Virus record (IMG/VR): IMGVR_UViG_3300025168_000044
Span: 1-64,000 of that record
Reading direction: 5' to 3' (one strand)
Origin: a virus
DNA: 64,000 bases
The notes under the pieces were generated by a model. The model was not told where the DNA came from. It ran no database searches and was given only the letters and a program-made list of their open reading frames with translations. Position numbers and translations under genes: made by a program. Positions 9,571 through 55,161 of this stretch are shown here, in pieces. Positions within the stretch are counted from its first letter, which is position 1. Every line of letters starts with the position of its first letter.

Positions 9571-11433
9571 TTAAACAATCTCTTCCTCCATAGCACTGAA
9601 GCCCCGTGAACGTGTAGCGTCATAGGCTAAATAATGAGCCCCTGCCATTTGTGCAAAACGTGAAGAAGGCGGAATTTGCTGGCAACCATGAAGCGCTAAG
9701 GCCAGTGCCATTACTGTGTCATCATGAGCCCCTTCCTGCGCTTGCTCCTTGCCATTCGGGTCTACTACAAAACGTAACATCTCCTGCAAAATCACTGGGG
9801 ACTTGACCCTCAGCCATTCCTCCCTGACACACTCCTTCAAAAAGCCTAAAATCTGTGGGCGAGTTCGCTTGGTGGTTAAAAAGCCTAACTTCCTCGTTGG
9901 CCTACTCCCACGCTCATCCAACACCCTTTCTGCATAAATATTGGGGTAGCGGTAGTAATCACTTAGCCTCCTGACTGTAACCATGCCGTGGTTGTTGCGC
10001 TCGACAACCATCCATGCTTGATTGTAAAACCGCCCCAATGCCGTCAAATGCCCTGCCAATTCGTCGGGGTCACAGCGTAGCCGCAAAGTCGCTACCTCTT
10101 CATAGGTCACGGCATCCAACACCACTGCTACCGAATAATCAGCATCCCGCCTACCTGTCAAAATCCCCTCGGCTACATCACAGCCAATCCGATACTCACG
10201 GTCATAGACTGGGGGCGTATGCACTTTTAAAGGCCCCAAAGGCTCTGGCAACAGGTTAAAACGTAGCTCTTGCATTGCACCTAAAGTCTGCTCAATCCCA
10301 AAAGGCTCCCCCTCTCTGGCCTGAGCCTGCCAGCCTGTTAGCACACTGCGCCGAAAAACAGAGCGTGAAGAGCTGAGAAAGCTCTCCTCTGGCGATGACG
10401 GGTAGTCCTGGTGAAATTGGTCCAGCTCCCCTTGACAAACATCACTAATACAGCTGCGCCGCCAGTGTAAATGCTCCAGCGATACGCTAAAAATCTCTTC
10501 AGTATCCCCAGTTGCCATCTTGTACGTCTGACCCAGTAAACTAGCCTCCTCCTCACCCCCATACTTCTCCAGTGTCCCCAAACTCGCTTGAAATGCCTCA
10601 CGATCCCCCTCATTGCGGAATGGCCTTACATAGTCACTGAAACTCCACCACGGAAAGAAATCAGCCTCCCAAGCATTCGCTCCCTCGGCTGCCTGCCAGT
10701 AGCTGTTGTAGAAATGCCCCCCAACCCCATTCGCTGTAGACTCTAAAATCTGCTCGCCATGCCCGACCTTGGTGGTGCGCATCAAGGCTCCACAGTAGTC
10801 CGCTGCCCCATTCCCCCACCGGCTTACCTCACTCAAGTGCAAAAAGTTGATCTGGTCCCCAACTACATCGCTACCGCCTACCGTTGCTAACCGATACCTT
10901 GTGTTGCGGCCTCCACCCTCGACTGTCCCCCACTGTAACTCCCCCTTGTTGCCATAGAGCTTGGATGGCTTGAAGGCCGCCGGTAACTGGCTCTCCATCA
11001 GCCGCACCATGTTGAACAATGTGCGGGTGGTCTCCTCGCTGTTGGCTACCAGTAAGATCCGCTGGTTGCTCCTAATCAAACTGGCTAGAAAGAACCGCGC
11101 TATTACATACGTCGAAAGGCCAGAGCGCCTAGGCTTCAAAACTACCCGCCTTACATAGCCCTGACGGGCTAGCTGATCCTCTACCCTCGCGTGAAGTACC
11201 CGCTGGACAGAGTTTAAACGCAACGGGATCAATTCCCCTGAGCCAAATGCCTCTATGCGGAACAGCCGCTCAAATGCTGCCGAGGGGTGTGACCAGCAAA
11301 AACGTATAAGATCAGCTAGATCCATTTGTGGCCCCGCCGTGCCCCCTCCCCCCTCCAGATTAAGGGATTCCTTACTCTCTGAGTCCCTGAGCTCTGCGAT
11401 GTAGCCGTTTTCTAGGCTGTCGGCTGTGATCAT
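9571..11433 (-). CDS. terL: Terminase large subunit
   Basis: LKPRRSGLST (Walker A), LHLSE (Walker B), ESTANG, IGCDVAEG, ERNNHG, HDDTVMA. Confidence 0.93.
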   Translation of the reverse strand: MITADSLENGYIAELRDSESKESLNLEGGGGTAGPQMDLADLIRFCWSHPSAAFERLFRIEAFGSGELIPLRLNSVQRVLHARVEDQLARQGYVRRVVLKPRRSGLSTYVIARFFLASLIRSNQRILLVANSEETTRTLFNMVRLMESQLPAAFKPSKLYGNKGELQWGTVEGGGRNTRYRLATVGGSDVVGDQINFLHLSEVSRWGNGAADYCGALMRTTKVGHGEQILESTANGVGGHFYNSYWQAAEGANAWEADFFPWWSFSDYVRPFRNEGDREAFQASLGTLEKYGGEEEASLLGQTYKMATGDTEEIFSVSLEHLHWRRSCISDVCQGELDQFHQDYPSSPEESFLSSSRSVFRRSVLTGWQAQAREGEPFGIEQTLGAMQELRFNLLPEPLGPLKVHTPPVYDREYRIGCDVAEGILTGRRDADYSVAVVLDAVTYEEVATLRLRCDPDELAGHLTALGRFYNQAWMVVERNNHGMVTVRRLSDYYRYPNIYAERVLDERGSRPTRKLGFLTTKRTRPQILGFLKECVREEWLRVKSPVILQEMLRFVVDPNGKEQAQEGAHDDTVMALALALHGCQQIPPSSRFAQMAGAHYLAYDATRSRGFSAMEEEIV

Positions 11434-11625
11434 TTCCCAGTCATATGATATAGCATCATTTGCTCGTTGCCTTAACTGCTCGGTTTGCCGGTGCTGAATT
11501 ACCGATTTGCAGGTTTGCCGGTATTATAAGCCGATAGAATCAGCCGAGTCAGCCTTCTCGCGCAGAAGCTGTGGTTGTGTTTAACTCTGCTTTTTCAACT
11601 CCCGTGGACAATGTCGAGATAATTA

Positions 11626-27660: not shown

Positions 27661-28275
27661 ATGGGTTTTTCTCTTTCAACGAAATGCAGAAGTGGTTTAA
27701 GAAAGGCGTTAAAAGTAGAAGGACATTCGCAAAAAAAGGCAGCTGAGGTAACGGGTTTAAATCCAGAAGATGTAAGTAGGCTGCTAAGTGGTTCTGCAGG
27801 GGTGGGTGCCGAAAGAGGGAAAATTTTGTGCGATTATTACAGTGTTCCACTAGAAATTCGTCTCGAAGACGAAGAAACGACTAATTATACTGAAGTACCT
27901 TTATATGATCGGCCAATTGTCATGAACAACGGGAAAACAAACCTTGTAGAGACTGTTGAACTGCCGGAAGCATGGATGCCAAAAAGCGCAGACTCATCTG
28001 TCGGGTTAGTAAAAATGGTTGGGGATTCAATGGCGCCTACATTTAATGTCGGAGACATTATTGGGGTGCAGTTTGGGAGTGGTTTCATTGCCAATGGCAT
28101 GTATGCATGCCGTGTACATGACACCGTCATGATTGCTAAACTGCAAAGGAAGTTTAATAGCTTCCGTATCATTTTTGATAACCCACAGTACGAGGACCTT
28201 GATTGCAACGATAGCATGAGGGCAGAAGACTTTGAAATTATTGGAAAAGTTAACTACGCCGCTAAATTTTTTTAA
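27661..28275 (+). CDS. CI-like repressor (HTH + S24 peptidase domain)
   Basis: SQKKAAEVTGL....VSRL HTH; GDSMAPTF..GD; IIGKV. Confidence 0.85.
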   Translation: MGFSLSTKCRSGLRKALKVEGHSQKKAAEVTGLNPEDVSRLLSGSAGVGAERGKILCDYYSVPLEIRLEDEETTNYTEVPLYDRPIVMNNGKTNLVETVELPEAWMPKSADSSVGLVKMVGDSMAPTFNVGDIIGVQFGSGFIANGMYACRVHDTVMIAKLQRKFNSFRIIFDNPQYEDLDCNDSMRAEDFEIIGKVNYAAKFF

Positions 28276-28293: not shown

Positions 28294-29502
28294 ATGCCAC
28301 GGAATCAGGTCCCTTACTTTGTGGAGCGAGGGAGTATCTTCGCACGGTTATATGAGTATCAGGACTCTGGGCAAAGAGCCCCCACAGTAAAAATGTGTTC
28401 AACAGAGCAAAGGGATTTTGATCCGTCAGGCAAACGCCGCACTAAAGCACAGGAGGAAAAGTTTTTGCGGGGGTGTTTAATTGAAGCTACTAAAAAGTTC
28501 ATTGAAAGAAAGGGAGGAGAAAAAAAGACTGAATCAACGAAGTACAGATGGCTCCATGTTGTGCAACTTTTTCTGGATTCTAAAGCACTGACGGATCACA
28601 AGGGGGCCTCTACGCAAAAGGGGTATGCTGTTGCTACCCAGCATTTTTATGATTGTGTTGGAGACATTGACATCTCTGAGATAAAGCTTTTGCACGGGCA
28701 GAAATTTGCCGCTCACTTAATTAAAAGGGATGTGGGGCCGTACACCATCAACAGTTACATTACGCAAGTAAAAGCCGTCTTGAATTGGGCAGAGGAAAAT
28801 GAAATTATCTATAAGGCTCCTAAATTTAAAAAGGTTAGAGAGCCTGAGAAAAAACCGTCTTTTTATTCAATGGAGGCCATTCACAAACTACAAAAGTATA
28901 TAGAAGAGCTCATAAATAGTGACCCCAAATGGAAGGCTGATCGTATGCAGCATCTTCGGGCTATGTTTATGATGTGGGGAACGGGATGCAGGGTAGGAGA
29001 AGCTATGTATTTACCACTGAAGCGCATTAACCTTGAAACAGGCCAAATCTGGATTGCTCCAGTTAAAAACGACTTTGATACGGTTATCTGGCGCCCCAAA
29101 AAAGATATAGAAAGATATTATCCAATGGGCGATAGCCTAATTGAATTTTTGCAAAAAGATTCGGCTCTAAGACCGCCTAAAGAAAAATTTTACCTAGACA
29201 GTGGGTATGGGACTCCACGGTATCGGGCGGCAACCACTCTGGCTCATGCTTTTAAAAAGTATCAGATAAAACTTGGGATCGCTGGCCCCACAGGTAGACG
29301 CCCCAAGGCTAATCACGGCTTTAGAGCTACTACTGCGACCTTAATGTTACGAGGTGGGGTTGACTCCTATGTCGCAATGAAAACCATAGGGCACAAAAAG
29401 ATTTCCACAACTGAACATTATATGAGCGAGGACCTTGATTTACGGAAAAAGGCCATCAATGTTGTTGATCAGCAGTACAAGGATAAAAAAACCGACCCTT
29501 AA
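28294..29502 (+). CDS. int: Tyrosine integrase
   Basis: Catalytic R (TGCRVGE), HGFR, IGH, TTEHY. Confidence 0.93.
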   Translation: MPRNQVPYFVERGSIFARLYEYQDSGQRAPTVKMCSTEQRDFDPSGKRRTKAQEEKFLRGCLIEATKKFIERKGGEKKTESTKYRWLHVVQLFLDSKALTDHKGASTQKGYAVATQHFYDCVGDIDISEIKLLHGQKFAAHLIKRDVGPYTINSYITQVKAVLNWAEENEIIYKAPKFKKVREPEKKPSFYSMEAIHKLQKYIEELINSDPKWKADRMQHLRAMFMMWGTGCRVGEAMYLPLKRINLETGQIWIAPVKNDFDTVIWRPKKDIERYYPMGDSLIEFLQKDSALRPPKEKFYLDSGYGTPRYRAATTLAHAFKKYQIKLGIAGPTGRRPKANHGFRATTATLMLRGGVDSYVAMKTIGHKKISTTEHYMSEDLDLRKKAINVVDQQYKDKKTDP

Positions 29503-29529: not shown

Positions 29530-29853
29530 ATGATTTTAGAACCACATCCTGGCTTAAAAAACTCGTCAAAGGCCCATCGGTTTAAGAAGTGTCTTGTCGG
29601 CGAACAGTTTGGACGGTGGAAGGTTTTGTTAAGGGCTCCTGACATAGACTATCACATAGTCTACTGGTGCCAATGCCAGTGCGGATTCATTGGCAGAGTA
29701 CAAAAAAGGTCTTTAGCTTCTGGCAAAAGTAGGAGCTGCGGATGTTTAAAAAGTGAACTGAATCGTAAAGAGTTCAAGTTTAGATGGGAAAATGGCTTTC
29801 ATAAAAATGGGAAGCTAACTCCTATAAAAAAAAGTAGCCCAGAATCCGATTGA
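29530..29853 (+). CDS. Stand-alone HNH/AP2-associated Zn domain protein
   Basis: LVGEQFGRWKVL...YWCQCQCG...LASGKSRSCGCL. Confidence 0.65.
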   Translation: MILEPHPGLKNSSKAHRFKKCLVGEQFGRWKVLLRAPDIDYHIVYWCQCQCGFIGRVQKRSLASGKSRSCGCLKSELNRKEFKFRWENGFHKNGKLTPIKKSSPESD

Positions 29854-29884
29854 AAGGTTATCTGAGCGGATCGGGTCCCTGATC

Positions 29885-30262
29885 CTACCGCTTCCAAAAA
29901 CGTGTGATACCCCGTACACCAAATGCTGCTGCCACAACTGTGGCAAACATGGCTTTATACCAATCAGGTACGGCCTCTAAATTTTGAAACCCTACCCGAA
30001 CCAGCTCCTCGCAACCAGGAACCCAGCACAGGATTAGCGGGATTGACAGCACAATAGTCAGGTACTCGTCTTTCCAGCTCGACTCTGAATTCCGCATCGC
30101 CGCCAGATCCCAATCGCTTTCGCTTAAAGATTTTCGCTCAAAAACTCTTGCCTCAGCAATCTTGTAAGCAACTTCTGCTTGTGCCTTGGCTTTGCTTTTT
30201 TCTTGGTGATTGTCGATGAAGCCAGTGGCTAAGTCAAAAACTTTGGGGATCAATGACCACAT
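29885..30262 (-). CDS. Putative holin (3TM/GTA-holin-like)
   Basis: SWKDEYLTIVLSIPLILCWVPG, PDWY, VAAAFGVRG, basic C-terminus. Confidence 0.7.
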   Translation of the reverse strand: MWSLIPKVFDLATGFIDNHQEKSKAKAQAEVAYKIAEARVFERKSLSESDWDLAAMRNSESSWKDEYLTIVLSIPLILCWVPGCEELVRVGFQNLEAVPDWYKAMFATVVAAAFGVRGITRFWKR

Positions 30263-30333
30263 TTTATTACCGATGAAATGCCGATAAATTTAGGAAATTG
30301 CTCTGAGGCTGTCCTAAATGCTGGCCTTGCATA

Positions 30334-30381
30334 TGACTGTTAATCAATGGGTCCCTGGTTCGAGTCCAGGTTGGGGAGCCA
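30334..30381 (+). other. attP core: 3' part of a tRNA-Asn(GTT) gene
   Basis: TGA-CTGTTAA-TCAAT-GGGTC-CCTGG-TTCGAGT-CCAGG-TTGGGGA-G-CCA; no D arm or 5' acceptor strand; 0.8 kb from the integrase. Confidence 0.88.
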
Positions 30382-30385
30382 ACAA

Positions 30386-30398
30386 AATCAGGCACTTA
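30386..30398 (+). promoter_or_regulatory. IHF-binding site next to the attP core
   Basis: AATCAGGCACTTA matches WATCARNNNNTTR. Confidence 0.6.
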
Positions 30399-30486
30399 GC
30401 TACTCTTGAGGGGTGTAAAATTAAAAACCGTGAAAAACCGGCGCAGTAAATATGCGGCCTGAAAGACCGGCCAATCACCGGCAAAA

Positions 30487-33400
30487 TTAATCAGTAATTG
30501 TGGCTGGGAGAGGCCGAGCAGTTCCCAGCAACTTTTCGTACTGTTTCATAATCGCTTTGGTAAAGTATTCGTTCTTTTCCCTTATTCGCTCAATTTTTTC
30601 TTCATCACTTAAATTTTGATTGCCAGCAATTTTTTGTGATTCTCTTACTTGTCGTGATTTTAATTGACCGAGCTTATAGCTTTGCAGTTCAATGTTTCGG
30701 CGTTGAGCATTTAGTGGATCTACACTGTAAAGGTTGGCCCCTGCAAAGGTGCGCCCCAAAGATTGGCCCAGTGTGCGCTTAGGCTGGCCTTCACTGTCTA
30801 CTAAAGTGCTTTCATCATATAACATTGGGATCATCCCTTCTGCTGACAAAGCATCAATGAGCTGCCTGATCACGCCGCCCGTGGAGGGTATGGGCACATC
30901 ACTATCTGAGGTAATATATTTATGTGCCTCATCAATCATGCCTCGCAAAATTGCAGGCTGAAGCTGGTTAGATAACCAAACCGATCTTTGTACATCCTGG
31001 TCTTCTTCTGGCAAATAATCGTCAATGAACTTCCGTTTAGTAAAAGGATCTACACCTGTTCGGTAGCCTGCTACTAGATTCAACAAAAAGCTTTGAAGAA
31101 TACCTGATTGAGCTGCGGCGCTGTCAACATTACCTCGGCTTAATTCTTCTGCCGCTCTGGTATACATGCCCCAAGGGATGTAGTACGTCTGATCAATGAG
31201 TTGAAAGCGGTCCATGCTGTCTTTAAATGGGAACAAGGCCAGCGATGGGTTCTTTTCTGCCCATTCACCTCTAGCTTTTTTGAGCGCCTCGACTGAATCT
31301 TCTTCATCCTCTTCAAACATTTCCTCTATGGTTTGCTTAAAGCCAAACTGTATTATTTTGCTGAGAGTATTAAAGAGCTTGTACTGCCATGCTAGCAACA
31401 GCAAGGATCGACGGCCTACCCCTGCAGGGTCGCGTTTTAAAGCTCTTGGGAAAGTTTCCAGAACCTTAGCAGTATAGGTTATAAAGGCAGCCCCTAGCGG
31501 AGAGGTTCTTGTGGTGCGAACCCACGGGCGCACCAGCGAGTAATCAAACAAAGCATCCTCTGCCAGCCTGACCGCTTCCTCCTCACTTAGCCCCTTTTCT
31601 TCCATTGCATACATGACCACGCTCATCTTATCCATGAACTCCATGTTCTGGTAGATAAAGCCTCCCTTGTCTACAATGTACTTGTTCCAAAGGTTTGCTA
31701 GATGCAGGTAGTAAATTTCGGCTGCAGAAAAGTCCTTGAATTCTTCAATAGGCAGCCCTGTCATTTCTGACAGCTCTCGCTTTTCGGCTGGAGAAAGTTT
31801 ATTCTTTTGCGTCTTGAGCTTGATTTGAAACTCAGCAACTTCCTGCCGAATGCGTTTTAGCTCCTGATTAGAAAACGTCCCAACACCTAAGCCATACTTT
31901 TCAAAAATCTCCTTATACTGCCGGTCTTTTTGATTGGCATCATTACTGAGCAAACTCTGAACAGCTCGGATATTATAGCTTAAAGCATTTACACCCAATT
32001 TCCTTGTGTTGATAGGGAATGGTGGCATTCCTGTGATCACATACATCCAGAGCTTGTTGGAAACAAAGTTCCTAGCCATCGACGGTGGGTTGAGGGCTAC
32101 ACTGAACAGCTTTTGGTAGCGCTGGTACTTTGCCGCAACACTGTCATCGCCAAAAAGAAACTTTGTCATGAAGTCATCTTTGCCTGGCTCAATTTGCGTG
32201 AAGCCTACGATGTCATCATAAATCTCCTGCTTCACCCACATCCCACGAAGAGCCCCATAGCGTTTGTCCTTTGGCATCTTTGCCCAGCCTTCAAAAGCAG
32301 TGGCACTTTCATCAGTGGGTAACCCCATTCGGCCCAATGCTTCTCGCTTGTAGTCATCCATGCGCTTGGTCAGGGTGTAAAGAGCCTGCTGGTACTTTGC
32401 GCTTTTCGTTGGAGCAATCTGGTCTCGGATCCTTTGGGCTTCTTCACTCAGGTAGCTGGCTGTCACATCGTAGCCTCGCATCCCTATAATTGGATCCAAG
32501 ACTTTCAGCATTTCAACCAAGGCAGCTGTTTCTAAATTGTTCGATAGCCATGATGCAGCAGCTCGTTGCTTTTCATTAGCCTGAATGGGTTGTTGTTGAT
32601 CTAATGCCAGCACCACAATTGGTTCCAACCCCTTAGCCCTTCGCTTTAAGCGCCGTTGGTTTCTGAAAGGCCGGTCAGGGTCTGTGCGCTCCAGCTCTGT
32701 TTGGAGGCGAGTAAACTGGCTGCGGATATAGCTCCATAGCTTTTGCTCTGCCAAGGCGGCTTCCACCTGAGCAGGTTGGCCGGTATCAGTTTCCAACATC
32801 GACTGCTGCCCAGCAGAAATTGCTCTTTGGTCATCAACATTCTGAGAAAGTTTAGCGCTGGTCCCAGAAATCCAATCGCCGAAGATATCAAGGACACTGA
32901 GCAAGTTCGATGGGATAATCTGAGGTTCCAACTCATGCAAACGGAGGTTTTGTGATAGCTGAATAGCCTCCTCCTGCGTCATTTGATTTGCATCCAGCAT
33001 CTCATTGATGATCTGTTGCATCTCATCATGGAGACTAAAGCCCGTAAATTGATCCTGCAAAGTCCAGGCAGGGTTTTCTGCCAAAGATTGAAAGTATTCG
33101 AGCAAGGCAATGTCACGGCCCACGGTTCCAACACTTTGAGCTGCTAAGAATGCGGGATCTTTCACAATGCCCAAAATCTCTTGGACTAATAAATCTGTTG
33201 GGTTGTCCCCAGTGAGCTTCCTGCGATTGGTGTAGTTCAACGGTGAGGGCTTGCGGCCAGTGGATAGAACCGCATTGACTTCATCGGGTAGGAGGTACTT
33301 CAAATAAACTTGAGGCAAATACTTGAAGCGATACTTCTCATAGGACTCTTGGGGAATCTGCCCAAGGTCTACCAGCTGCTGCCCTAAGTCATCAATCTCA

Positions 33401-36400
33401 TCTCTGGTCTTGACCGCTATCGCACGATCACTCTCAATGGTCACAGATTCTTCAGGCAACCCCTGCGTCAGCATCTCGTAAATTTCAGTCGGGGTTTCAG
33501 CTGTGCGGATACCATCATAGATTTCCCGCTGAACGCGCTCGGCCTTCTGGATCTTACCTTTTGCCAAATTTCTAAGTGTCAGCAGCTCGTCACGATGCTT
33601 GACATAAGCAAAGGGGTCAACAAAGCCGCTTACCCCGCTGGCAATCCGCTTGATGCGGTAAATCAGCTTGGCTGGGTCAAACAGGTTTTCAAAGAAATTG
33701 ATATTGGTAAATTTTTTACCAAGGCTTTGCTTCTCTTCTTCATTGAGAGGCCGTCTACCTCTGGGTCTGAGGCTAAACAGCTCATCTCGCTTTGTATCAA
33801 TCACTCGGTAATCCTCATTGGTAAAGAGGATCCCACGGTTAATTTCAGGTTCAATCTTTGGAATGGAGGGTAGTGCGTTCAGCTGCGTTTCATATTCGGC
33901 AAATGAAGCCAGATTTGCCGAGTTGGTTTCCGAAACCGTCCTTTTATTTATGCCAACATTGACATCACTGGCAACTGCCTCATAGTTCTTGGCGATCTTG
34001 CCTAGATGGTTTGGATAGCGCTGGTCATAAAATAGCCTTGTGCCTTCTTGAGCACCTGCTGCAGTAAGATTGTTACGAATGGTTTGATCGCCAGAGGATA
34101 AAACTATGCCATCGTAGCCTTCTCGCGCAGCCAGCTTCGTAATGAACTCCAAGCCTCGACGCCACCAGTTTTCCTGCAGAAAGTTTGGAGGCACACCCGA
34201 ATTGTTCCGTTTGTCTTTAATTTCACCTACTTTATCCGACAGAGCCTTAATCTCAGAGTCTGCTGCTGCAAATAAATCAGCTGCTCTTGCATCATATGGT
34301 GCTGCATCATCCTGTCGGCCCATTTCATTGATAATGGCCCTGTTTAATCTGCCAATGTCTTGATTGACAATGGCCCCATTACCATAGACTGCTCTGATTT
34401 GATCCAAAGTTAGTGGATTACTATCCCTCAGCATATGCTGGACAAAATCCTCAGAGTCTACAAATTTGTCAAAGAATGTGCGTATTGTGCGTAGCCGAAA
34501 AACATCCTGCATTTTCGCCACATCCCAAGGGTTCATTCGCTGATACCTTAAAACTTCTTCATCTGTGAGAGGCTTCAAGTTTTCATTCAATTGAAAAAAT
34601 TCATCAGCATCAATTCTGTCACGGCCTTGCTCTACTATAAATCTTCTTTCGCCTTCAATAAAGTTTGGGCCAGACTCTGCCTCATACGGTGCACCCCTAG
34701 TCATTACCGCACTTTGAAAGTACGGGTTACTAAACTCGTAGGAAAACAATTCGGTTAAAATAACATTCGCAGATTTTTCAAATTGTGAATTGCTTGACAA
34801 AGATATGTCCCTTGCAGCAGCAAGTTTCCTGTCTAGTTCGTTTTCGGCATTTTCTCGAGCATTTTGAATATCTTGATCTGAAGGTCTTGGCGCAATTCGG
34901 TTGTCAACATACTCCTGGTACACTTGGCCTAGATTGTTAAAAAGTTCCTGCTGCCTAAGTTTAATAGAAGTTTCCGTTTGGATTTGATCTTCTAACAACT
35001 GTTTGCTTTCTCCAGAACTTAGAGGCTCATTGCCGAATTTTCTTCCTTGCTGGAAACGGTCAGATTGCAGTTGATCCATAAATAAAACTTTTTCACCATC
35101 TGAAGTCCTGCGATCCTGCACCAAAAAGAAGAAAAGCGAATTGGGAACTGGGAAATGGTCCCCTTGGATGGTGTAATCATACTTGGGTTGGTTCTGTTCC
35201 ATATTTTTATGGACAAGCACGATTTGCCGGTAGTTACTGCCCCCAGGTTCCTGACTTAAAACGTACTCTGATTCCGCAGAAGTATGCACAAGCACTTCAG
35301 GGATAGCCGCATTTTTGGCTACTTCTTCCACAACGATGGGCCGGTTGGGGTTGCCATCGACAAACGTCTCTTTATCACCAAACAGCGTTTGCACTTCTTG
35401 CGTAGGGCGGCGGCTCATTGCCACCCGCTTGCTTCGAGCCATGTCAATCAGCCGGTCATACGCGTTCCCTGCTGGCATTCCGTCATAAATGTATTGTTGC
35501 CGGTGTTTGCCTCGGGCCTTGAGGAATTTGCTTTCACTTGCAAAGTCGGCGCGTACCGGCTCAGGGGGCAGATCCTGCAGAACCTCAACGAGCTTGCTTT
35601 CAAACATCGGGCGGTCTACGTTACGCCTTTCGCCGGTCTTTGGATCCGTCACCTTAATGCCAGCAACTAAAGGCTGATCGACAATGTTGCTTGGATCAAA
35701 AGTGCGCCTTAGCGAAAATAATTTTCCTCCTTCGTCAACAGGCTTCGTTAAGTTCCTTTGGTCTGTGGGCAATCCCTTTACAGCATTTTTAGCCAAAACC
35801 AGCGCACCTACCTGAATAACTTCATCAGCGGTATTTAGAGGCATCCCATCAGTTTTGTCATAAAACCAAGAGTACCTATGTGGCTTATACCCAACTTGAG
35901 TCCAAGTGCTACCATCGGCATCACGGTAAGTAGCCTTCCCTAGCGGGTTGTCCATTATGCTGACGGCTTGATTATATAAAGCTTCGGGGTCTTCATTGAC
36001 AAATGTCCCATTGATTAAGGCAAAAGGAGATTTGGCCGCCTCCCCCATTGCTACCTGCAATGCTTTCTTGGCAATGTTGTCAGCTCCAAAAGTCACATCA
36101 GTGATCTTGGCTGCCTTGCCATAGCCTATTGGTGCCCCGCTGCTATCGTGAATTGTTGGGGTGTATACTCCATAAGACTTATAGCTTGGAATGTCTAAAC
36201 GCAGCCCAACGCGAATCCCGTCAATTATAAATTTTGTAAGACCTATAAGACCCTTGTTACCTTTTAGTTTATTGCTATCAAGGGCGTTTACATGGTCGCT
36301 CCAAGGCCGTATGGACGGCGTGCTTTCTAGTGGTACTATTGGGTCAAATTCCCTTACGGCTGCTAAATATTTTTGTTGAGCTGCAAGCATCTTCGCTTCT

Positions 36401-39400
36401 GTTTCGTATTGGGCCTGTCCATACTTTCTTGCTGCCTCAATCAATTGTGGCGATGGGTCTTCAAGAAATTTCCCTTTGTTTGCGGACTTCCACGCAGTAA
36501 CTGCTTCTTCAGATGTGTCTGCAGCAGCAAGGTTCCGTTCGTAGCTAGGGGCGCCTTCAACACCTACCTGGGGCTTGCGCCTTAGCGAGAACAACGCCCC
36601 CTGGCTTGGGTCTTCCAGCACAGACTCATCAACAGAAAAAAAGTTCTCAACTAGCTTTTCATAGCCTAGTGGAGATTCATCTACTAAGTCTGTTGCATAC
36701 AGTTTTAAATGCTCATAGAACTTATCAAACTTCTTGCGCATTGAAGTAATGCTGGCCTTGCGAGTATTGCCCCGCATACTGCGCACCAGTATTCTTTGAG
36801 CCTTATCCTTAAAAGGCATCAATTCCCCGATGTTGCTAAAATCTTCAGCAGCAGCAGGGTTTTTTTCTAGGTCGTTATATACTGCTTCTGCTTCTCGCCA
36901 ATCTTGATAGATCCTATCTGTCAACCCTTGCAGCTCTTGCTTTAGGTTTTGATTCAGCTGCATCGCATCAACGGCTTGTAGCAAGTTTAGGCGTTTGGGC
37001 ACACTATCTCTTAGAGCGCCAACTTGTGCTGGGATTTCAGTAGCAAGTGAGATTTGGTCAACCAGCTCCTTGGGGTACGCTTTGGTAAAGAGTGCTAGTG
37101 TAAAAATCTTTTCACCCTCTTTTGTAAGCCCTCCATCTTCAGTAAAGTAAAGTTTGTATTCAGTGGCGTTTGGCACAAGCGCTTGAATCCGCTCTCGCAC
37201 ACCTTTTCTGGTGATTGCTAACCCATCTTCAGTAATAAGGCTTTGGACATCAATGCTGTTCATCTGGTTGCCCAGATCCCTTGCCTTCTCTGCCAGAGAC
37301 AGCACCTCGACTTGGGGCTTGTTCTCAATGTTTGCAATTTTTTCAATAGTGCCTTGGGGCAGATCCTCGGTAAAGCGCCGCACCATGATAAGCCGTGTGC
37401 CATTGGCCTTGGCTTCATTGATCCGCTCCAACACGGTGCTAGGGCTAAAGCCTAAGCCTTCTGCTCTTTCCAGCAGTTCGTCCTCGTAGTTTTGCCAGAA
37501 CTGGCTTTCTCGCTGGTTCTCTTGATTTGTGGCTTGTTCAGCAAGATACTTTAGGGCTCTAGAGCGATTATTGCCACTGAGGACTGCGCCCTGGTTGTTG
37601 ATGATGGGGGCTCCCATGCCAGGGTCAGGGCTGTTTCCTAAGAAGCGAGTCTCGTCAGGCTCCCCGATAATCTCACGCAGCTTGGGATCTGCCTGCAAAG
37701 AAGTCCGGTCCCTAGGCTGCACTCCAGCAGCTCTGGCAAAATCTGGGTTGATGGAGCCATCCAACTCATTGCTAATAAATATGTCATCGACATTGACCAA
37801 AGCCACCTGAGCTGGGGCATTTTCACTGACTGCTGCAATGTCTCTTGGGATATTGGCCTCAACGCCGCCATCGACTTGGACAGGAGTGGGGGTGATTGTG
37901 GGGGGGGTTAAAGCTAGCGGTTGTTCTGTGGGATTAACAAACGCTGATAATATTGCTTCTCTGCCACGTTGGACAATGCTGAAAACTTCTTGCTTAAGTT
38001 CTTTTTTGCCGCTTGGCAATAAAGGTGAAACACTACTGTCAGCCAAAACATTAAAGTCCTCAGCTCCTCGACGTTTTGCAATGATTTCACCTACACGGGA
38101 ATAAGCCGATTGCATTACTTCTGGAGAATCCAAGTTTACTTCAAGGTTCTTACCTGATAAATACATCCCAACAGCATCTCCCCTAAAATCTAGCTCAAAT
38201 GTTTCCAAAATAGCGTTGGCAAGCTCATCATCCCGAAGAGCATTGCGAACACTTTGCTCTATAGGTTGCCTACCCATTTCATACTCAACCCGATCCATTG
38301 CAATGCGGCTATCAAGCAGAGACTTAGCCTTTTGAAGATCCTTTTTGTTAATTGTTTTTTCAATTTCATTAATACGAACATCTTCATTCAGTTGTTTTGC
38401 TACTTCGTATTCTGATTTTTTTGCAAACCAATCACTCCCATATTTAGCAACCATTTGGTCATCAAAATCATCAATGCTTTGTTGAAGAGTTTTACCTTCT
38501 GCTTGCAGTTTAGCTAATTTTTTCTCACTTTTAGTTCGATAAAAACCAGCGGTAAAATTGGTTGGCTTAAGCTCTTCCTCTATATTGAACAATTCAACGG
38601 CACGGCGTAACAGCTGAATTTGAGCCTGCCTTTGCTCTTCGCTGTCTCTTTCAACCCGCTGACCATTTACCCTAATTTTACTTTCATAATACCCTGTTAA
38701 ATAGGCATCAAACGCCAAATTCCCAATTGCTTTTGGAGTAGTAAACTCAGCAAGGTCAAAATTAAGCAGGGCTGTGTAGTTTGTCCCACTTGCTTTTTCT
38801 ATGCTTTTTGCTTTTGCAACTTCATACCTTATAGAGTTTTGATGTGCAGCATCCATTGGCTCCAGCACCACATCAAGCTGTCCATCCTGCAGACTCAAGC
38901 GACCGACCGCCTCGGTTTTGCCAAACAGCCCTGTTGGCATAATGTTGCGCAACCTCACCAGCTCAGAGTTGTTTTGTTCAGAAACTAAAATTTCTGCAAT
39001 TTGCGGGGCTACCGGACGGCCTTGCGGATCAACAACAGGGTCATCCCCTAGATGTGTATTGAATTCAGCAATCAGCTCTTCTGGACTTAGCAGGTAGTTA
39101 AAAAACTTTACATCAGGTTTTTCTTCCTGCTGCATGGCTGCATCCACTTTAGATCGCAAGCCTGGATAAAGAAAATCTTCAATCTGTTGCAGCTCTTCAT
39201 CAATGTCAGGTAATTGATTAATGCGATCACCGACAAGACTATGAGTGGCATGACCCAATTCATGCAGAATGACATGAGCAATTTCTGTGTTGTCAGCATC
39301 CAGTGCAAAATCTAGATCAAGGCCAACTCCACCATTAAAATGCGCTCCGTTCCAAGTATAACTTCTTTCATGCAGCCGAATGTTCCCTAATTGGTTGCCA

Positions 39401-42400
39401 TAGCGGTCCACAACCTTCTGTTCAGGATTTTCAACAACTGGCTTGGTTTCATTGTATTCAATTTCTTGGAACTTGCGTTCTCTCCTCGTTGGGCTCGAAA
39501 GAGTATCTTCCTCGTTACCACCACTAATCCTTACGTTTGTTTCAACTGCGTCTTCTTCAAGCTCTGGCTGGTTACGCCGATCAATAAGCGTAGGTGTACG
39601 ATCCAGCATAAAAATGTTCCTGACCTCATCTTGGTCAAGACCTGCTAGGGAGTCATCGGTTTCACGGCCATTGGTCCCCTCCATCTCACTCGGGACTTCT
39701 GGCGCGGGAGGCATGACCACAGCTGGAGACTCTGGGCTGACGCCGCTGGCTGCCTCCTCCTCTTGCAGAGCTTCAAGCTGCCGGTCAAATTGCTCTTGAT
39801 AGGCTCTGATTTCTGCATCAGTAGCTTCAGCATCCAAAGGCTCCAACGTTGTTGTTGGCTCCTGAGCAACTGGCTGTATTTCTGGTGGTGGAGTGCGCTC
39901 AAGGCTTTCTATGTCAACGCTGGATTCTGGAACTGCCTGCTGCTCTGCTTCTGCCAGAGTTGGTGCTGCCCTCTCTGGCAACTCCACAGTGAATGGGAAG
40001 TCATCATTCTCAAAGACTTCTTTCAGCAGACGGCTTTGATCTCTAGTGCTAAGATCCTCAAACTTTTTACCTTTGGCAATTCGCTTACCCGCTGTGCTGA
40101 CTTTGCCTGCTGGAGTCTTTATTGCTGCCCCAACCAGCTCTCTCGTAGCATCTGGCAAACTGGCAAACCAAGGCTTAATTGCCTCCTCCTGCTCAACTCG
40201 TAGCATCTCCTTCGTAGCCCTTGCCGTTGGAGCTGCAGCTTTTACTGGCTCAACAGCAGGAGGCTCTGCCAGAACTGGGGCCTCTTGAGCTAGACTGGTA
40301 TCGGATTCCGGCACTTCTGGTGCAACAGCTTCAGGCATTTCTAGGGCTTCTTCCTGCTCTACCAACTCCTCAAAAGTTCGGCCTTCTGGCAATTTCTTTT
40401 CAACCACACTTCTAAACAGCCTTGCACCATCAGAATCTTCTTTACCATCGCGTTTTAGTTGTAGGTATTTTCTGAAAGTCTTCCACGCTGATTCTGGTAA
40501 ATTAATAATTTCTGGAGGCGCAACCTCTGGTAGCGTTGCCTCTTCCACAACAGGACCAGGGGCTGGTTTTGAAGCCACTTCCTCTTCAATGGCATTCGGC
40601 AAGGTTTTGAGGTCAGGGGCTTCTGGTGGGTCAAGTCGGTCATCATTGGCAACCAGCAGTTTAAGGTTGTCTGTTGGCACATTCCGCTCAACTCTGCCCG
40701 TTTCGGTCATGAGCATGTCTACAGAACCATCCTCATTAGTTTCGAGGATTACCCCAGCCATCCCACTTTTTTCAGCAACATCATCCAAGCCTATCATCTC
40801 GCCGCTTTGATAAGTTGGAGCTGCAGGCTCAACTTGTTCTGTGAGGATTGCATTGCCATCTGAAGTTTCCTCAATATCCACATCCTCTAAAGGTAGTGAC
40901 CCACCTCTCGGAGCTGGCTGTGGGCGCTCTGGCAAAACTGTTTCTTGGCTGGTCAGTGGGGGGATAGTCAGGTCTTCTGTTGGCTCCGTTGTTACCTCTG
41001 GCTCTGCCCTGCCAAAGAGGCGGCTGGCTTCTTCCTGCAACGGCGTTTGCGGCGCTACATCTGCGCCTATTTGATCGCCAAGTGTCGCAGGTGTCGCAAC
41101 TGTCGCAACTGTCGCAGACTCTTCACTGCCAATCTGATCGCCCTCTTGAGCTGGAGCCTCTTGAGCTGGAGCCTCTGGTGGAGGAGTTGTTTCGGGTGGT
41201 TTCTGTTTGGTGGCCCGTGGTGGCTGACGTTTCTTTCCACCGTCTGTTTGCTGTTTAACGATTTCAGCAAATAAACTTCTCAGCTCAATTTCAGATGCCT
41301 TAGCAATGTTGCCTCGACTCTCTGCCAGCTTCTGCCGAAGACCCGCCTGCCACTGTGCCTTGAGCTGCCCTTTTTCCGCATACTTGTTGACAATCCATTC
41401 CTCTGTTGCCGTCAGGTCATTGGCATTGGGGTAGCGTTCCTGGCGGAAGGCGTCAATCTCTTCCCCAAAAGTGATATACATCCTTTGAAGCAAGGAATCC
41501 CGATCCTCATCACTCATGATGTCGCGCAGTCCTTGATGACCTACATACTCATGCTCAATGACTTCAACAGCTCTAATCGCCATCCGTTCAACAGGGGAGA
41601 GCTTAAACTCTTTACCTTGGCTTAGAAAACCCGTGATGTTTAATCCTGAGACAAAATCTGGGCGGGGTTCTAGGGATCCTGAAGCAATGTTTTCTGCAAT
41701 AAAAGTGATTGTCTGAGTGCCCTTGTCAAAATAGCCTTCCGCCTGAGAATTGATCTGAGCCTTTGGGAATAGCGCTTGTGCTTCTTCCACAGTTCCAACC
41801 ACCTTGACCTTCCCAGCTTGGACCCGATCTCTCAACGACTTATTGCTTTTTGCCAGAAGCTTAATTGCAAACTGCAAAACTTGGGGGGTAGCAACAATCT
41901 CTTGAGCATTTCGGTTAGTCAGCTCATTAAAAGTTTCTTGTTGCCCTTTTGAAATAGGTTCGGCTTCTAGTGAGCCAGATGGAACACTATCTTGTCTGGT
42001 TTCAACCTGTTCCCCTGCGAAGATGCCGCCTTCCTCGGTCTGGGTTACCCCAGATTCAATGTCAAAATTTGGATCCAACAAATTGGGCTCAGGAGTAGGC
42101 CCTTCTGCTTGCCCACTCAGCATCCCTTCAGCCCCTTGCAGCTCCTCTTGCCTTACCGCATCCCCAAATAAAGTATCCAACAAGTTGGGCTGGCCTTCCC
42201 CAAACGCCCCCTCATCTGATTGATTTGGCATTTTATATTTGTCATACCATGCTCTCAGGCTTTGCTCTTTTGCTGCGACTGCCTCTGCAGAATTGGCAAT
42301 CTTTTGGCCCAAACGCCGTTGCCTAACCGTTTCAAACTGCTGCTGCATCCCATCGGGGCCTTCCAGCATGTACTGGCCCGATGTAACAAACCCAGAGATA

Positions 42401-44052
42401 GTTCCGCCAGCAGCAGCTTCCATTGCTGCCGACTTAATGGCTTCCATATCATCCCAAAGGTGAGCTTCTTCATTAGTAATGTCATCACCTAGCACTTCCT
42501 TTAGAGCAACCTGCATCCCGTCTCTGACTGCCTTGTAGTCAAAGAATCCAGTAATCCCTTCTGTAAATGCGTCATAGGCTACGTTTTTAGCCATGAACTC
42601 TGAAAGACTTGCTGCATTTCGGATAGTATAAATGCTTGCGGCATCTGCGAGTGAAGCCAAATTAAAAACAAGGCTTTTCCCATCCTTACCATCAATTTTA
42701 AATGCGCTGTCTGGCGCTTTATCTGTATCCACAACTCTATATAGATACATCCGGTTATCACTAACCTCTCGAACCAAAGTGCTTTCGGCTCTCATCATTG
42801 CAGTTTGCAACGCTTCATCATCAGGATACCGCAACCGTAATTTGTCACGAATGGCCTTACGGCGAGGATCTAGCGGGACATTTTCGTTAAAAAGTAATTT
42901 TAATTCTGCAACCCCAGAACCAACATTTTGGCTGGTGGCGGCATCTAAGGAGCCAGTGACTACACCACTTTTGGCAGCTAAGGGCCCAGCAAAAGACGCA
43001 ATTGCTCCAACCGTCAACCCTTGGACAAGAGCTGGGGTAGAACTAGGAAGCGTTTGGGAAAATTCGCCAAGAATAAAGTTTTTGCCTTGAAAGGGAGTAA
43101 GCTGATCTCCCGTAAATTCATCATACTTTTGGCGCTCCTCTGAAGTCACTTCCTGCTGGGTTGCAATTTTTTTCGCAATGGCAGCCAGCTCATTGGTAAA
43201 GGTTTGCGGCTTCCAGCTTTCTCCTAATTCTCTAATGTCCAGCAAAAGCGCGTCAGAAACTAAATTGGTGTCTATGCCTAGCTGAGATAATGTATCACTG
43301 CCATAAAGCGCTCGGCTGGATGCGCCAACTAGCAAATCACCAAAGGCACTAGCAGTTGCAGTGGGAACATTTTTTAAGCCAATGCCCAAGTTCTGCAGCT
43401 CTTCCTTTGCAACCTGAAGCGCTCTCTGGTTTTCTTGCTCTACAAAGGCTTCATCCTCTTTCCGCACAGCTGGTGGAAGGACCTGTTCTAGATTCCGCAA
43501 CTTTCCCAACTGGATCCGCTCGGCTTCCATTGCTTGCAGCTGATTTGCGCCTTCGAGTTGGGCATCAGGCTGAGGTTGGATAACTGCTGGAGTTAGGGCA
43601 AATGGCCCAGTGTTCGGGGCAGCAAACAACTTAGGTGAAGAAGAGTCAGGAGGGGGGACAGGTGGTGGTTCCAGATTTTGCTTAGGGGCTGGCGGGGCTT
43701 CTGCAGAAAATTGCTGAAAATAGTCAGGGATTTGCTGAGAGGCCGGATCAAATTCTAGGTTCAGCTCTGGTTGAGGGAACTCCAAGTTGGTAGGTTCTAA
43801 ATCCCCAACAGCTTCAAATAAATCAAGAAGTTGTAACGCTTGTTGGGCGCTTGTGCCATCACGCAAGAAGTTTTCAAACAGTTCAACCCGTTTTTCATCA
43901 CTTGTCTGATTACTTTGCAGAATTTCTTCAGGCATCCGCAACGGCCCAGGTGGGGCAATCTTTGGGGTGTCAATGCCAAGGTAATCAATATTGGTTTCCC
44001 TGTCAGATCTAGCATAGAAAGGGGCAAATTGGTTGCTGCCAAATTGAGCCAT
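30487..44052 (-). CDS. Giant (4521 aa) polyvalent internal virion/ejection protein
   Basis: Last of three large post-tail genes; HEYVGH and HELGH zincin-like motifs; ddrB-type ParB-like segment (QPRDR...GAPII...VLSGNNR); LPD-like C-terminus. Confidence 0.8.
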   Translation of the reverse strand: MAQFGSNQFAPFYARSDRETNIDYLGIDTPKIAPPGPLRMPEEILQSNQTSDEKRVELFENFLRDGTSAQQALQLLDLFEAVGDLEPTNLEFPQPELNLEFDPASQQIPDYFQQFSAEAPPAPKQNLEPPPVPPPDSSSPKLFAAPNTGPFALTPAVIQPQPDAQLEGANQLQAMEAERIQLGKLRNLEQVLPPAVRKEDEAFVEQENQRALQVAKEELQNLGIGLKNVPTATASAFGDLLVGASSRALYGSDTLSQLGIDTNLVSDALLLDIRELGESWKPQTFTNELAAIAKKIATQQEVTSEERQKYDEFTGDQLTPFQGKNFILGEFSQTLPSSTPALVQGLTVGAIASFAGPLAAKSGVVTGSLDAATSQNVGSGVAELKLLFNENVPLDPRRKAIRDKLRLRYPDDEALQTAMMRAESTLVREVSDNRMYLYRVVDTDKAPDSAFKIDGKDGKSLVFNLASLADAASIYTIRNAASLSEFMAKNVAYDAFTEGITGFFDYKAVRDGMQVALKEVLGDDITNEEAHLWDDMEAIKSAAMEAAAGGTISGFVTSGQYMLEGPDGMQQQFETVRQRRLGQKIANSAEAVAAKEQSLRAWYDKYKMPNQSDEGAFGEGQPNLLDTLFGDAVRQEELQGAEGMLSGQAEGPTPEPNLLDPNFDIESGVTQTEEGGIFAGEQVETRQDSVPSGSLEAEPISKGQQETFNELTNRNAQEIVATPQVLQFAIKLLAKSNKSLRDRVQAGKVKVVGTVEEAQALFPKAQINSQAEGYFDKGTQTITFIAENIASGSLEPRPDFVSGLNITGFLSQGKEFKLSPVERMAIRAVEVIEHEYVGHQGLRDIMSDEDRDSLLQRMYITFGEEIDAFRQERYPNANDLTATEEWIVNKYAEKGQLKAQWQAGLRQKLAESRGNIAKASEIELRSLFAEIVKQQTDGGKKRQPPRATKQKPPETTPPPEAPAQEAPAQEGDQIGSEESATVATVATPATLGDQIGADVAPQTPLQEEASRLFGRAEPEVTTEPTEDLTIPPLTSQETVLPERPQPAPRGGSLPLEDVDIEETSDGNAILTEQVEPAAPTYQSGEMIGLDDVAEKSGMAGVILETNEDGSVDMLMTETGRVERNVPTDNLKLLVANDDRLDPPEAPDLKTLPNAIEEEVASKPAPGPVVEEATLPEVAPPEIINLPESAWKTFRKYLQLKRDGKEDSDGARLFRSVVEKKLPEGRTFEELVEQEEALEMPEAVAPEVPESDTSLAQEAPVLAEPPAVEPVKAAAPTARATKEMLRVEQEEAIKPWFASLPDATRELVGAAIKTPAGKVSTAGKRIAKGKKFEDLSTRDQSRLLKEVFENDDFPFTVELPERAAPTLAEAEQQAVPESSVDIESLERTPPPEIQPVAQEPTTTLEPLDAEATDAEIRAYQEQFDRQLEALQEEEAASGVSPESPAVVMPPAPEVPSEMEGTNGRETDDSLAGLDQDEVRNIFMLDRTPTLIDRRNQPELEEDAVETNVRISGGNEEDTLSSPTRRERKFQEIEYNETKPVVENPEQKVVDRYGNQLGNIRLHERSYTWNGAHFNGGVGLDLDFALDADNTEIAHVILHELGHATHSLVGDRINQLPDIDEELQQIEDFLYPGLRSKVDAAMQQEEKPDVKFFNYLLSPEELIAEFNTHLGDDPVVDPQGRPVAPQIAEILVSEQNNSELVRLRNIMPTGLFGKTEAVGRLSLQDGQLDVVLEPMDAAHQNSIRYEVAKAKSIEKASGTNYTALLNFDLAEFTTPKAIGNLAFDAYLTGYYESKIRVNGQRVERDSEEQRQAQIQLLRRAVELFNIEEELKPTNFTAGFYRTKSEKKLAKLQAEGKTLQQSIDDFDDQMVAKYGSDWFAKKSEYEVAKQLNEDVRINEIEKTINKKDLQKAKSLLDSRIAMDRVEYEMGRQPIEQSVRNALRDDELANAILETFELDFRGDAVGMYLSGKNLEVNLDSPEVMQSAYSRVGEIIAKRRGAEDFNVLADSSVSPLLPSGKKELKQEVFSIVQRGREAILSAFVNPTEQPLALTPPTITPTPVQVDGGVEANIPRDIAAVSENAPAQVALVNVDDIFISNELDGSINPDFARAAGVQPRDRTSLQADPKLREIIGEPDETRFLGNSPDPGMGAPIINNQGAVLSGNNRSRALKYLAEQATNQENQRESQFWQNYEDELLERAEGLGFSPSTVLERINEAKANGTRLIMVRRFTEDLPQGTIEKIANIENKPQVEVLSLAEKARDLGNQMNSIDVQSLITEDGLAITRKGVRERIQALVPNATEYKLYFTEDGGLTKEGEKIFTLALFTKAYPKELVDQISLATEIPAQVGALRDSVPKRLNLLQAVDAMQLNQNLKQELQGLTDRIYQDWREAEAVYNDLEKNPAAAEDFSNIGELMPFKDKAQRILVRSMRGNTRKASITSMRKKFDKFYEHLKLYATDLVDESPLGYEKLVENFFSVDESVLEDPSQGALFSLRRKPQVGVEGAPSYERNLAAADTSEEAVTAWKSANKGKFLEDPSPQLIEAARKYGQAQYETEAKMLAAQQKYLAAVREFDPIVPLESTPSIRPWSDHVNALDSNKLKGNKGLIGLTKFIIDGIRVGLRLDIPSYKSYGVYTPTIHDSSGAPIGYGKAAKITDVTFGADNIAKKALQVAMGEAAKSPFALINGTFVNEDPEALYNQAVSIMDNPLGKATYRDADGSTWTQVGYKPHRYSWFYDKTDGMPLNTADEVIQVGALVLAKNAVKGLPTDQRNLTKPVDEGGKLFSLRRTFDPSNIVDQPLVAGIKVTDPKTGERRNVDRPMFESKLVEVLQDLPPEPVRADFASESKFLKARGKHRQQYIYDGMPAGNAYDRLIDMARSKRVAMSRRPTQEVQTLFGDKETFVDGNPNRPIVVEEVAKNAAIPEVLVHTSAESEYVLSQEPGGSNYRQIVLVHKNMEQNQPKYDYTIQGDHFPVPNSLFFFLVQDRRTSDGEKVLFMDQLQSDRFQQGRKFGNEPLSSGESKQLLEDQIQTETSIKLRQQELFNNLGQVYQEYVDNRIAPRPSDQDIQNARENAENELDRKLAAARDISLSSNSQFEKSANVILTELFSYEFSNPYFQSAVMTRGAPYEAESGPNFIEGERRFIVEQGRDRIDADEFFQLNENLKPLTDEEVLRYQRMNPWDVAKMQDVFRLRTIRTFFDKFVDSEDFVQHMLRDSNPLTLDQIRAVYGNGAIVNQDIGRLNRAIINEMGRQDDAAPYDARAADLFAAADSEIKALSDKVGEIKDKRNNSGVPPNFLQENWWRRGLEFITKLAAREGYDGIVLSSGDQTIRNNLTAAGAQEGTRLFYDQRYPNHLGKIAKNYEAVASDVNVGINKRTVSETNSANLASFAEYETQLNALPSIPKIEPEINRGILFTNEDYRVIDTKRDELFSLRPRGRRPLNEEEKQSLGKKFTNINFFENLFDPAKLIYRIKRIASGVSGFVDPFAYVKHRDELLTLRNLAKGKIQKAERVQREIYDGIRTAETPTEIYEMLTQGLPEESVTIESDRAIAVKTRDEIDDLGQQLVDLGQIPQESYEKYRFKYLPQVYLKYLLPDEVNAVLSTGRKPSPLNYTNRRKLTGDNPTDLLVQEILGIVKDPAFLAAQSVGTVGRDIALLEYFQSLAENPAWTLQDQFTGFSLHDEMQQIINEMLDANQMTQEEAIQLSQNLRLHELEPQIIPSNLLSVLDIFGDWISGTSAKLSQNVDDQRAISAGQQSMLETDTGQPAQVEAALAEQKLWSYIRSQFTRLQTELERTDPDRPFRNQRRLKRRAKGLEPIVVLALDQQQPIQANEKQRAAASWLSNNLETAALVEMLKVLDPIIGMRGYDVTASYLSEEAQRIRDQIAPTKSAKYQQALYTLTKRMDDYKREALGRMGLPTDESATAFEGWAKMPKDKRYGALRGMWVKQEIYDDIVGFTQIEPGKDDFMTKFLFGDDSVAAKYQRYQKLFSVALNPPSMARNFVSNKLWMYVITGMPPFPINTRKLGVNALSYNIRAVQSLLSNDANQKDRQYKEIFEKYGLGVGTFSNQELKRIRQEVAEFQIKLKTQKNKLSPAEKRELSEMTGLPIEEFKDFSAAEIYYLHLANLWNKYIVDKGGFIYQNMEFMDKMSVVMYAMEEKGLSEEEAVRLAEDALFDYSLVRPWVRTTRTSPLGAAFITYTAKVLETFPRALKRDPAGVGRRSLLLLAWQYKLFNTLSKIIQFGFKQTIEEMFEEDEEDSVEALKKARGEWAEKNPSLALFPFKDSMDRFQLIDQTYYIPWGMYTRAAEELSRGNVDSAAAQSGILQSFLLNLVAGYRTGVDPFTKRKFIDDYLPEEDQDVQRSVWLSNQLQPAILRGMIDEAHKYITSDSDVPIPSTGGVIRQLIDALSAEGMIPMLYDESTLVDSEGQPKRTLGQSLGRTFAGANLYSVDPLNAQRRNIELQSYKLGQLKSRQVRESQKIAGNQNLSDEEKIERIREKNEYFTKAIMKQYEKLLGTARPLPATITD

Positions 44053-54783: not shown

Positions 54784-55161
54784 TTAATAAGTCCAAACAG
54801 TTGGCCGATAACGATCACTGTCCTCAGCTTCCAAATCATCAATGTGGAGGAAACGCCCTCCAGCCACCCCTATGCCAAGCATCCCGTATTTCAGGGCCAA
54901 TTTGAGCAGTAGGTGCATGTCCCCACCACGGCATGACAGATCAGCAGCCCTGCCTGTCGTATGAGGCCCTGTTCGGCTTTTAGTCCCACTCACTTTTTCG
55001 TTGTGATCAGGGCACCGATAGCCCGAATTTATTTTGATTGGCTTCTGATATTCACTGCGAATGCACTGCAGCTTATCAATAAATTTATCGCTCATCAGGT
55101 TTCCCCCACAGCCACATTTGCATATAAACTCAGTTGCACTGAAATTGATTGTATCCTTCAT
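54784..55161 (-). CDS. Endolysin, peptidase M15A family
   Basis: EFICKCGCG, INSGYRCPDHN..V, H..G.AAD, FLHID. Confidence 0.88.
   Translation of the reverse strand: MKDTINFSATEFICKCGCGGNLMSDKFIDKLQCIRSEYQKPIKINSGYRCPDHNEKVSGTKSRTGPHTTGRAADLSCRGGDMHLLLKLALKYGMLGIGVAGGRFLHIDDLEAEDSDRYRPTVWTY

Follow-up and report, generated by a model that had tools for sequence, protein, structure and literature searches.

An attachment site between the late operon and a holin-like gene in an uncultured temperate phage: a gene-order hypothesis for excision-coupled lysis

In phage lambda, the attachment site (attP) lies between int and sib, a cis element that acts on the int transcript as an RNase III site and makes int mRNA less stable, so that the prophage and the free genome express the gene differently (int-sib retroregulation). 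In cluster G-type mycobacteriophages such as BPs, with their integration-dependent immunity, and in the case of Mx8 intP, attP is located inside the repressor or integrase coding sequence; integration changes this gene, or what it encodes, and thereby serves as a genetic switch. In T7, the endolysin (lysozyme 3.5) is encoded tens of kilobases away from holin 17.5, which lies close to where the late genes end. Here we analyse a 64,000-nucleotide (nt) stretch of viral DNA (the window; bases 1-64000 of the 90,956-bp IMG/VR virus record IMGVR_UViG_3300025168_000044), the first 56,802 bp of which are best explained as a circular temperate podovirus-like phage, designated phage A. An attP-like site in phage A lies between the end of the late operon and the gene for a 125-amino acid (aa) holin-like membrane protein, P0001, and we consider whether integration and excision could control the supply of late transcripts to this gene. 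The principle of such coupling is established for Tn916, in which expression of the genes for DNA processing and conjugation from Porf7 is coupled to circularisation (PMC11658703). In integrated Tn916, the promoter and the genes lie physically apart, at opposite ends of the element; excision brings the two together, and expression is thereby coupled to excision.

Phage A differs from each of these systems. Tn916 is a conjugative element for which coupling has been demonstrated experimentally, together with an insulating terminator and the canT antiterminator, whereas in phage A a single small gene would be affected and the arrangement is known from gene order alone. The lambda attP separates a gene from an RNA processing element, whereas that of phage A would separate a coding gene from its presumed promoter; the attP of BPs and Mx8 is intragenic, whereas that of phage A is intergenic and would affect a probable lysis gene; and T7 is virulent and has no attP. 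A common temperate layout, represented here by three viral contigs (L041, L038, and L213), likewise has lysis genes at the end of the operon beside attP and the integrase, but on the operon side, so that the prophage keeps its lysis genes connected. In phage A and in a related metagenome contig (L083), the holin-like gene is instead on the integrase side. A literature search of incomplete coverage turned up no phage whose attP stands between the late operon and a lysis gene.

The late block of phage A occupies approximately 38 kb of the minus strand. Its first gene encodes the large terminase; portal, capsid, and fibre genes come next, and beyond base 1 the block resumes at base 56802 and continues through a chaperone, the small membrane protein P0002, an M15 endolysin, small basic proteins, and proteins of 1275, 876, and 699 aa to a giant 4521-aa gene (Table 1). 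All intergenic gaps in the block are 56 bp or less, with the exception of the 224 bp between the giant gene and P0001. The putative attP core is located within this sole large gap, 105 bp past the giant gene and 71 bp ahead of P0001, and retains the anticodon stem and loop with GTT, the variable loop, the T arm, the acceptor strand, and CCA of tRNA-Asn; ARAGORN found no complete tRNA in the window. A 26-mer covering the T arm and acceptor strand gave 47 matches in bacterial genomes, and every match with readable flanks lay at the 3' terminus of a sequence resembling tRNA-Asn(GTT), with a few partial copies among them. Repeats, which are putative arm sites, occur on both sides of the core: the holin-side arm carries the direct repeats ATCGGTAAT/ATCGGCATT (30266-30285, 11 bp apart), with ATCGGYA present twice, and the giant-gene-side arm carries ACCGGC three times (30437, 30466, and 30477) and TGAAARACCGGC twice. 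The tyrosine integrase gene lies 0.8 kb from the core, directly downstream of a CI-like repressor gene. A first-pass annotation of this DNA, made by a model from the sequence alone, had put attP in the interval that separates the late operon from the holin-like gene, and the endolysin some 25 kb upstream. Its coordinates, those of the giant gene, attP, and the holin-like gene among them, are all correct according to the open reading frame (ORF) list and direct reading, and the endolysin lies 24.9 kb upstream of P0001 in the operon sense. We consider a 46-aa ORF (30344-30484, minus strand), which starts 2 bp past the giant gene and extends across the adjoining attP arm into the tRNA fragment, unlikely to be a gene.

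Table 1. Features of phage A discussed in the text, with positions in the window (TM, transmembrane; SAR, signal-arrest-release; HTH, helix-turn-helix).
Feature	Position	Strand	Remarks
P0001, 125-aa holin-like membrane protein	29885-30262	-	phrog_2524; long N-terminal helix then hydrophobic helices
Holin-side attP arm	30263-30333	.	Direct repeats, inverted repeat, weak promoter-like site; no Shine-Dalgarno motif
attP core, 3' 48 nt of tRNA-Asn(GTT), anticodon stem to CCA	30334-30381	+	Read directly
Giant-gene-side attP arm	30382-30486	.	Repeats and weak irregular hairpin
4521-aa gene (giant gene), last of the structural late block	30487-44052	-	ORF list; 1-2 bp gaps to upstream genes
CI-like S24 repressor, directly upstream of integrase	27661-28275	+	Peptidase_S24/HTH, phrog_4
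Tyrosine integrase, convergent with the 125-aa gene, 0.8 kb from attP	28294-29502	+	PF00589, phrog_1; 77% identical in L083
HNH-like gene between integrase and 125-aa gene	29530-29853	+	phrog_374; not in L083
M15 peptidase endolysin, without signal or SAR sequence	54784-55161	-	PF08291, phrog_894
P0002, one TM helix and charged coiled coil, overlapping endolysin start	55158-55541	-	ATG at 55502 likely
Candidate late promoter CTGACT-18-TATAAT, 10/12, upstream of large terminase gene	11552-11523 (region 11484-11552)	-	Consensus scan

Recombination at the core would set the order of the prophage as follows: the rebuilt host tRNA-Asn; position 30382 onward, with the giant gene reading toward the tRNA; the remainder of the late block, as far as the terminase promoter; the early genes; the repressor, integrase, and HNH-like genes; the holin-like gene reading inward; position 30333; the second copy of the core; and host DNA. 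Integration would separate P0001 from the late operon and leave host DNA upstream of P0001 at the opposite end of the prophage, a geometry that the first-pass annotation had described in the same way. Late transcripts would exit the prophage through the tRNA in antisense, and the geometry also agrees with the annotation in that read-through from the tRNA would run antisense to the giant gene.

The model we consider is as follows. The tyrosine integrase of phage A would direct integration to a host tRNA-Asn gene, at its 3' end. The lysis genes of the phage appear to be split, with P0002 and the M15 endolysin in the middle of the late block and P0001 displaced to the far end, past attP, where it converges on the repressor-integrase operon. 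When the genome replicates as a circle, P0001 mRNA would come most simply from late-operon transcripts that continue across the 224-bp attP region. This region contains no strong terminator, no strong promoter, and no Shine-Dalgarno motif before the P0001 ATG. In the prophage, topology would break this connection between the operon and P0001, such that late-promoter-driven expression of P0001 would require excision. We consider it plausible, at somewhat short of an even chance, that P0001 mRNA derives mainly from late transcription reading through attP. That read-through gates lysis is doubtful, and the model in its full form, in which P0001 is the timing holin, is transcribed only by read-through across a reconstituted attP, and lysis is licensed by excision, must likewise be regarded as distinctly unlikely. 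It is an unproven gene-order hypothesis for an uncultured phage represented by two sequences, and the evidence is purely positional. If true, an induced prophage that is unexcised, or not yet excised, would make particles and endolysin but would be incapable of lysis. Under the read-through model, the locus would offer a phage example, at the lysis step, of the excision-coupled expression established for Tn916, and it would bear on how futile lysis is avoided when excision fails or is delayed, as in in-situ replication and lateral transduction.

P0001 is probably a lysis gene. It contains the strongest hydrophobic segment among the small coding-strand ORFs of phage A (residues 68-84, Kyte-Doolittle 2.1), with a second at approximately residues 103-116, and its AlphaFold2 model is all-helical (predicted local distance difference test score 75; helices 63-78 and 100-114); in its small size and in having at least one TM helix it resembles holins. 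It matches phrog_2524, of unknown function (E 1e-31). Relatives are common in marine phages, being found in 378 GenBank phage records and several hundred viral or metagenome contigs, and a lysozyme or M15 gene lies within 2.5 kb in 31 of the 95 family loci with enough downstream sequence (tblastn). Pfam searches of 87 downstream neighbours identified 12 Phage_lysozyme, 3 Amidase_2, and 1 Peptidase_M15_3 proteins, in addition to terminase subunits. The presence of three unrelated endolysin classes beside the family is good evidence for a role in lysis. In phage HMO-2011, the P0001 homologue (gene 58) is followed by a 37-aa TM peptide (gene 57) and then by lysozyme, and in the nearest relatives of P0001 besides L083 (55-56% identity; L084, L085, and L094) the order is holin-like gene, HNH gene, M15 endolysin. 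While an endolysin stands beside the family member in relatives, in phage A it is far removed and the slot adjacent to it is taken by P0002. The endolysin of phage A has no secretion signal and therefore needs a membrane lesion, which speaks for the model. The label holin-like, which had been given in the first-pass annotation, is supported by the hydrophobic helix and by synteny with lysis cassettes in relatives; the stronger claim that P0001 is the sole holin is not established, given P0002.

Several observations weigh against the model. A search for the fold of P0001 in BFVD returned no match with E < 1. Membership of P0001 in PF11351 (GTA_holin_3TM, DUF3154), an idea that came from one GenBank annotation and from an ESM-atlas neighbour cluster (score 0.96; 40% of members with PF11351), was rejected by hidden Markov model (HMM) and profile-profile comparison. 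The PF11351 HMM gave no match to P0001 (even at E 10), to 26 homologues, to the record searched in six frames, or to the Vibrio phage homologue annotated as 'DUF3154', and hhalign comparison of the P0001-family alignment with eight true PF11351 proteins from alphaproteobacterial genomes returned a probability of 7.5%. ICP1 TeaA is filed under PF11351 (PMC7182436); ICP1 ORF137, guessed to be TeaA, gave nothing. Since these tests failed, P0001 is called holin-like by position and topology only.

As for the layout itself, only L083, a 10-kb metagenome contig, shares it with phage A, giving two sequences in all. In L083, a P0001 homologue (92% identical) converges on an integrase (77% identical) and a repressor (79% identical), the integrase and holin-like genes being 35 bp apart with no HNH gene between them. 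The contig starts 28 bp before the ATG of the holin-like gene (27 of the 28 bases identical to the window) and covers the holin/integrase side only. Conservation of the order giant gene, attP, holin-like gene, raised in the first-pass annotation, is therefore seen for the holin/integrase side, while the order as a whole is not shown to be conserved. Further P0001 homologues, 93% and 73% identical, occur on short ENA contigs, and the integrase, the C-terminus of the giant protein, and the attP core returned nothing when used as queries against viral contigs. In temperate L041 and L038, the M15 gene, holin-like gene, small genes, tRNA fragment, and integrase all lie on one strand, with the holin-like gene on the late-operon side of attP; the order in L213 is lysis cassette, tRNA-like site, integrase. 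Lysis genes thus often border the lysogeny module in this phage group, and phage A differs in that attP lies one gene earlier. The tRNA-like sites near homologues in L004, L005, L015, and L104 were considered as attP and rejected, because they are whole phage tRNA genes and no integrase was found (two records checked).

Continuity of the late transcript is also open to objection. The first-pass annotation had supposed no termination ahead of attP, and no convincing terminator was found; a weak irregular hairpin with a U-tract does, however, follow the giant gene (30470-30438, minus strand, -7.0 kcal/mol). It was first read as a terminator, until a census of U-tract hairpins in phage A (47 sites listed, cut-off -7 kcal/mol) placed its score at the listing cut-off, as compared with -18.2 kcal/mol for a strong intrinsic-terminator-like hairpin at 4188-4152 on the minus strand. 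RNA folds of the 224-bp gap were no better than those of shuffled sequences. The 4188-4152 hairpin is followed by seven T and is located inside the late block, just after a 146-aa gene and two genes downstream of the capsid gene, which suggests attenuation or a need for antitermination. With a strong internal terminator, the late block is not one unobstructed transcript.

The strongest alternative gives P0001 a regulated promoter of its own, placed in the 71 bp that separate the core from the P0001 ATG, in which case integration would leave expression unchanged and the position of the gene next to attP would carry no regulatory meaning. Consensus scans, based on a sigma-70 consensus that may not be that of the host, found no match of at least 9/12 in 30263-30486, in keeping with the annotation's view that P0001 has no evident promoter of its own. 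That view is qualified by a relaxed scan, which detected one 8/12 site, AGGACA-17-TAAATT, at 30315-30287 (minus strand), 24 nt before the ATG. Its two hexamers sit in opposite arms of an 8-bp inverted repeat (ATTTAGGA/TCCTAAAT, 30288-30319, spacing N16), and the whole looks like an operator laid over a regulated promoter. A 224-bp gap without translational coupling has the look of a separate transcription unit, and in lambdoid and P2-like phages genes between the integrase and attP often have promoters of their own. Against this, 8/12 matches occur approximately 0.55 times per 224 nt of phage A coding DNA, the inverted-repeat word is not enriched elsewhere in phage A, and the same 71 bp also hold the ATCGG repeats that would be expected of integrase arm sites. 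With the same consensus, the candidate promoters score 10/12 before the terminase gene and 8/12 before P0001; a Tn916-like logic would have the driving promoter on one side of the joint and a separated gene with no promoter of its own. On balance, we regard an independent promoter as unlikely, yet clearly to be reckoned with.

A further alternative is that the layout is a by-product of module shuffling without any gating of lysis, with P0001 accessory or redundant, or with P0002 or another protein as the timing holin, such that an unexcised induced prophage would still lyse. P0002, which overlaps the endolysin start in the classical holin position, is a second candidate for the lysis membrane protein, whether as holin, holin partner, or spanin-like protein; an ESM-atlas lead (score 0.91) connects it to a Holin_BhlA cluster. 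That the holin might be P0002 is a further point against the model. A P0002-like gene is paired with M15 in ten other viral contigs (L212-L221), one of them a complete 37-kb phage with terminal repeats that has no 125-aa-family gene (positive control run). Members of the 125-aa family occupy widely differing positions among relatives (before the endolysin, after the endolysin, before the nozzle gene, or before the terminase genes), which points to frequent rearrangement, and the HNH insertion marks a locus in flux. On the other side, the complete phage that lacks the family has another small TM protein just after its endolysin, as does L213, whereas phage A has no TM ORF at that position. In addition, coiled-coil TM and P0001-type proteins occur together in the cassettes of several relatives, including L041 and L005, and P0002 and P0001 may thus be partners rather than substitutes. 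Shuffling without gating is, in our view, rather improbable.

Two of the contigs with the P0002-M15 pair have additional genes. Those of L213 (3986-6444) encode a protein with a signal peptide and a TM protein of 51 aa, after which come the tRNA-like site and integrase; those of L221 (3585-4886) are a lipoprotein-like ORF and a gene for a 79-aa TM protein.

The window contains sequence from two phages. Bases 1-345 recur at 56803-57156 with 90.7% identity, and the record holds two packaging sets, one with terminase and portal genes at 9571-11433 and 6753-9104 and the other, an HMO-2011-like pair, at approximately 70118-71470 and 67929-69887; the latter are 63% and 53% identical to their HMO-2011 counterparts. 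The record is a chimera: fibre-tip sequence common to both links circular phage A (56,802 bp) with a portion of phage B, which is HMO-2011-like. That the tRNA fragment is a relic or an assembly artefact of this chimera rather than a working attP, as might be argued from the joining of two phages and from the lack of a 48/48 host match and of attL/attR junctions (in an incomplete search, the genome scan being keyed to tRNA and the metagenome scan to protein), is very improbable, since the joint (56802/56803) is 26 kb away and leaves the attP locus wholly within phage A, the integrase and repressor beside the fragment are intact, repeats occur in each arm, and an independent metagenome contig (L083) shows conservation of the lysogeny module.

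With respect to the host, the best match to the full 48 nt was 47/48, in Bacteroidales metagenome-assembled genomes, and the bacterial species collection searched contained no exact 48/48 host tRNA. The nearest anticodon arm is of the Bacteroidales type. A Shine-Dalgarno motif precedes 25 of the 53 phage A genes (none precedes P0001), and this frequency disfavours a Bacteroidota host. Phage A is also distant from cultured phages, the terminases of the closest of which are at most 31% identical to its own. The 4521-aa product is presumed from its context to be a candidate internal or ejection protein; the 1275-aa gene further upstream in the late block matches an 'internal virion protein' PHROG, and the late block of HMO-2011 likewise finishes with the largest gene of that phage.

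The candidate late promoter upstream of the terminase gene is followed by two copies of ACCGGCAAA and one of ATCGGTAAT (11484-11522), motifs common to the attP arms. Against an expectation of 0.6, the window contains five copies of ACCGGCAAA; two are immediately adjacent to the -10 box of the terminase promoter and another is in an attP arm (30477-30485), while ATCGGTAAT lies in the other arm (30266-30285). Within phage A, the region upstream of the terminase gene ranks first for 8-mers in common with the attP gap. A single DNA-binding protein, comparable to Cox or Apl, may act on the attP arms as well as on the terminase promoter, and through these motifs might tie excision and late transcription together.

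On the opposite side of P0001, the repressor-integrase-HNH operon and the holin-like gene converge, being separated by 31 bp (29854-29884) with a weak hairpin between them. Because the operon converges at so short a distance, its transcription in the prophage could enter the holin-like gene in antisense. The HNH-like gene has a paralogue in phage B (record positions 66844-67127, 72% identical), and in L084, L085, and L094, too, the holin-like gene has an HNH gene after it. The HNH-like gene has the appearance of a mobile, homing-type gene with a preference for this neighbourhood.

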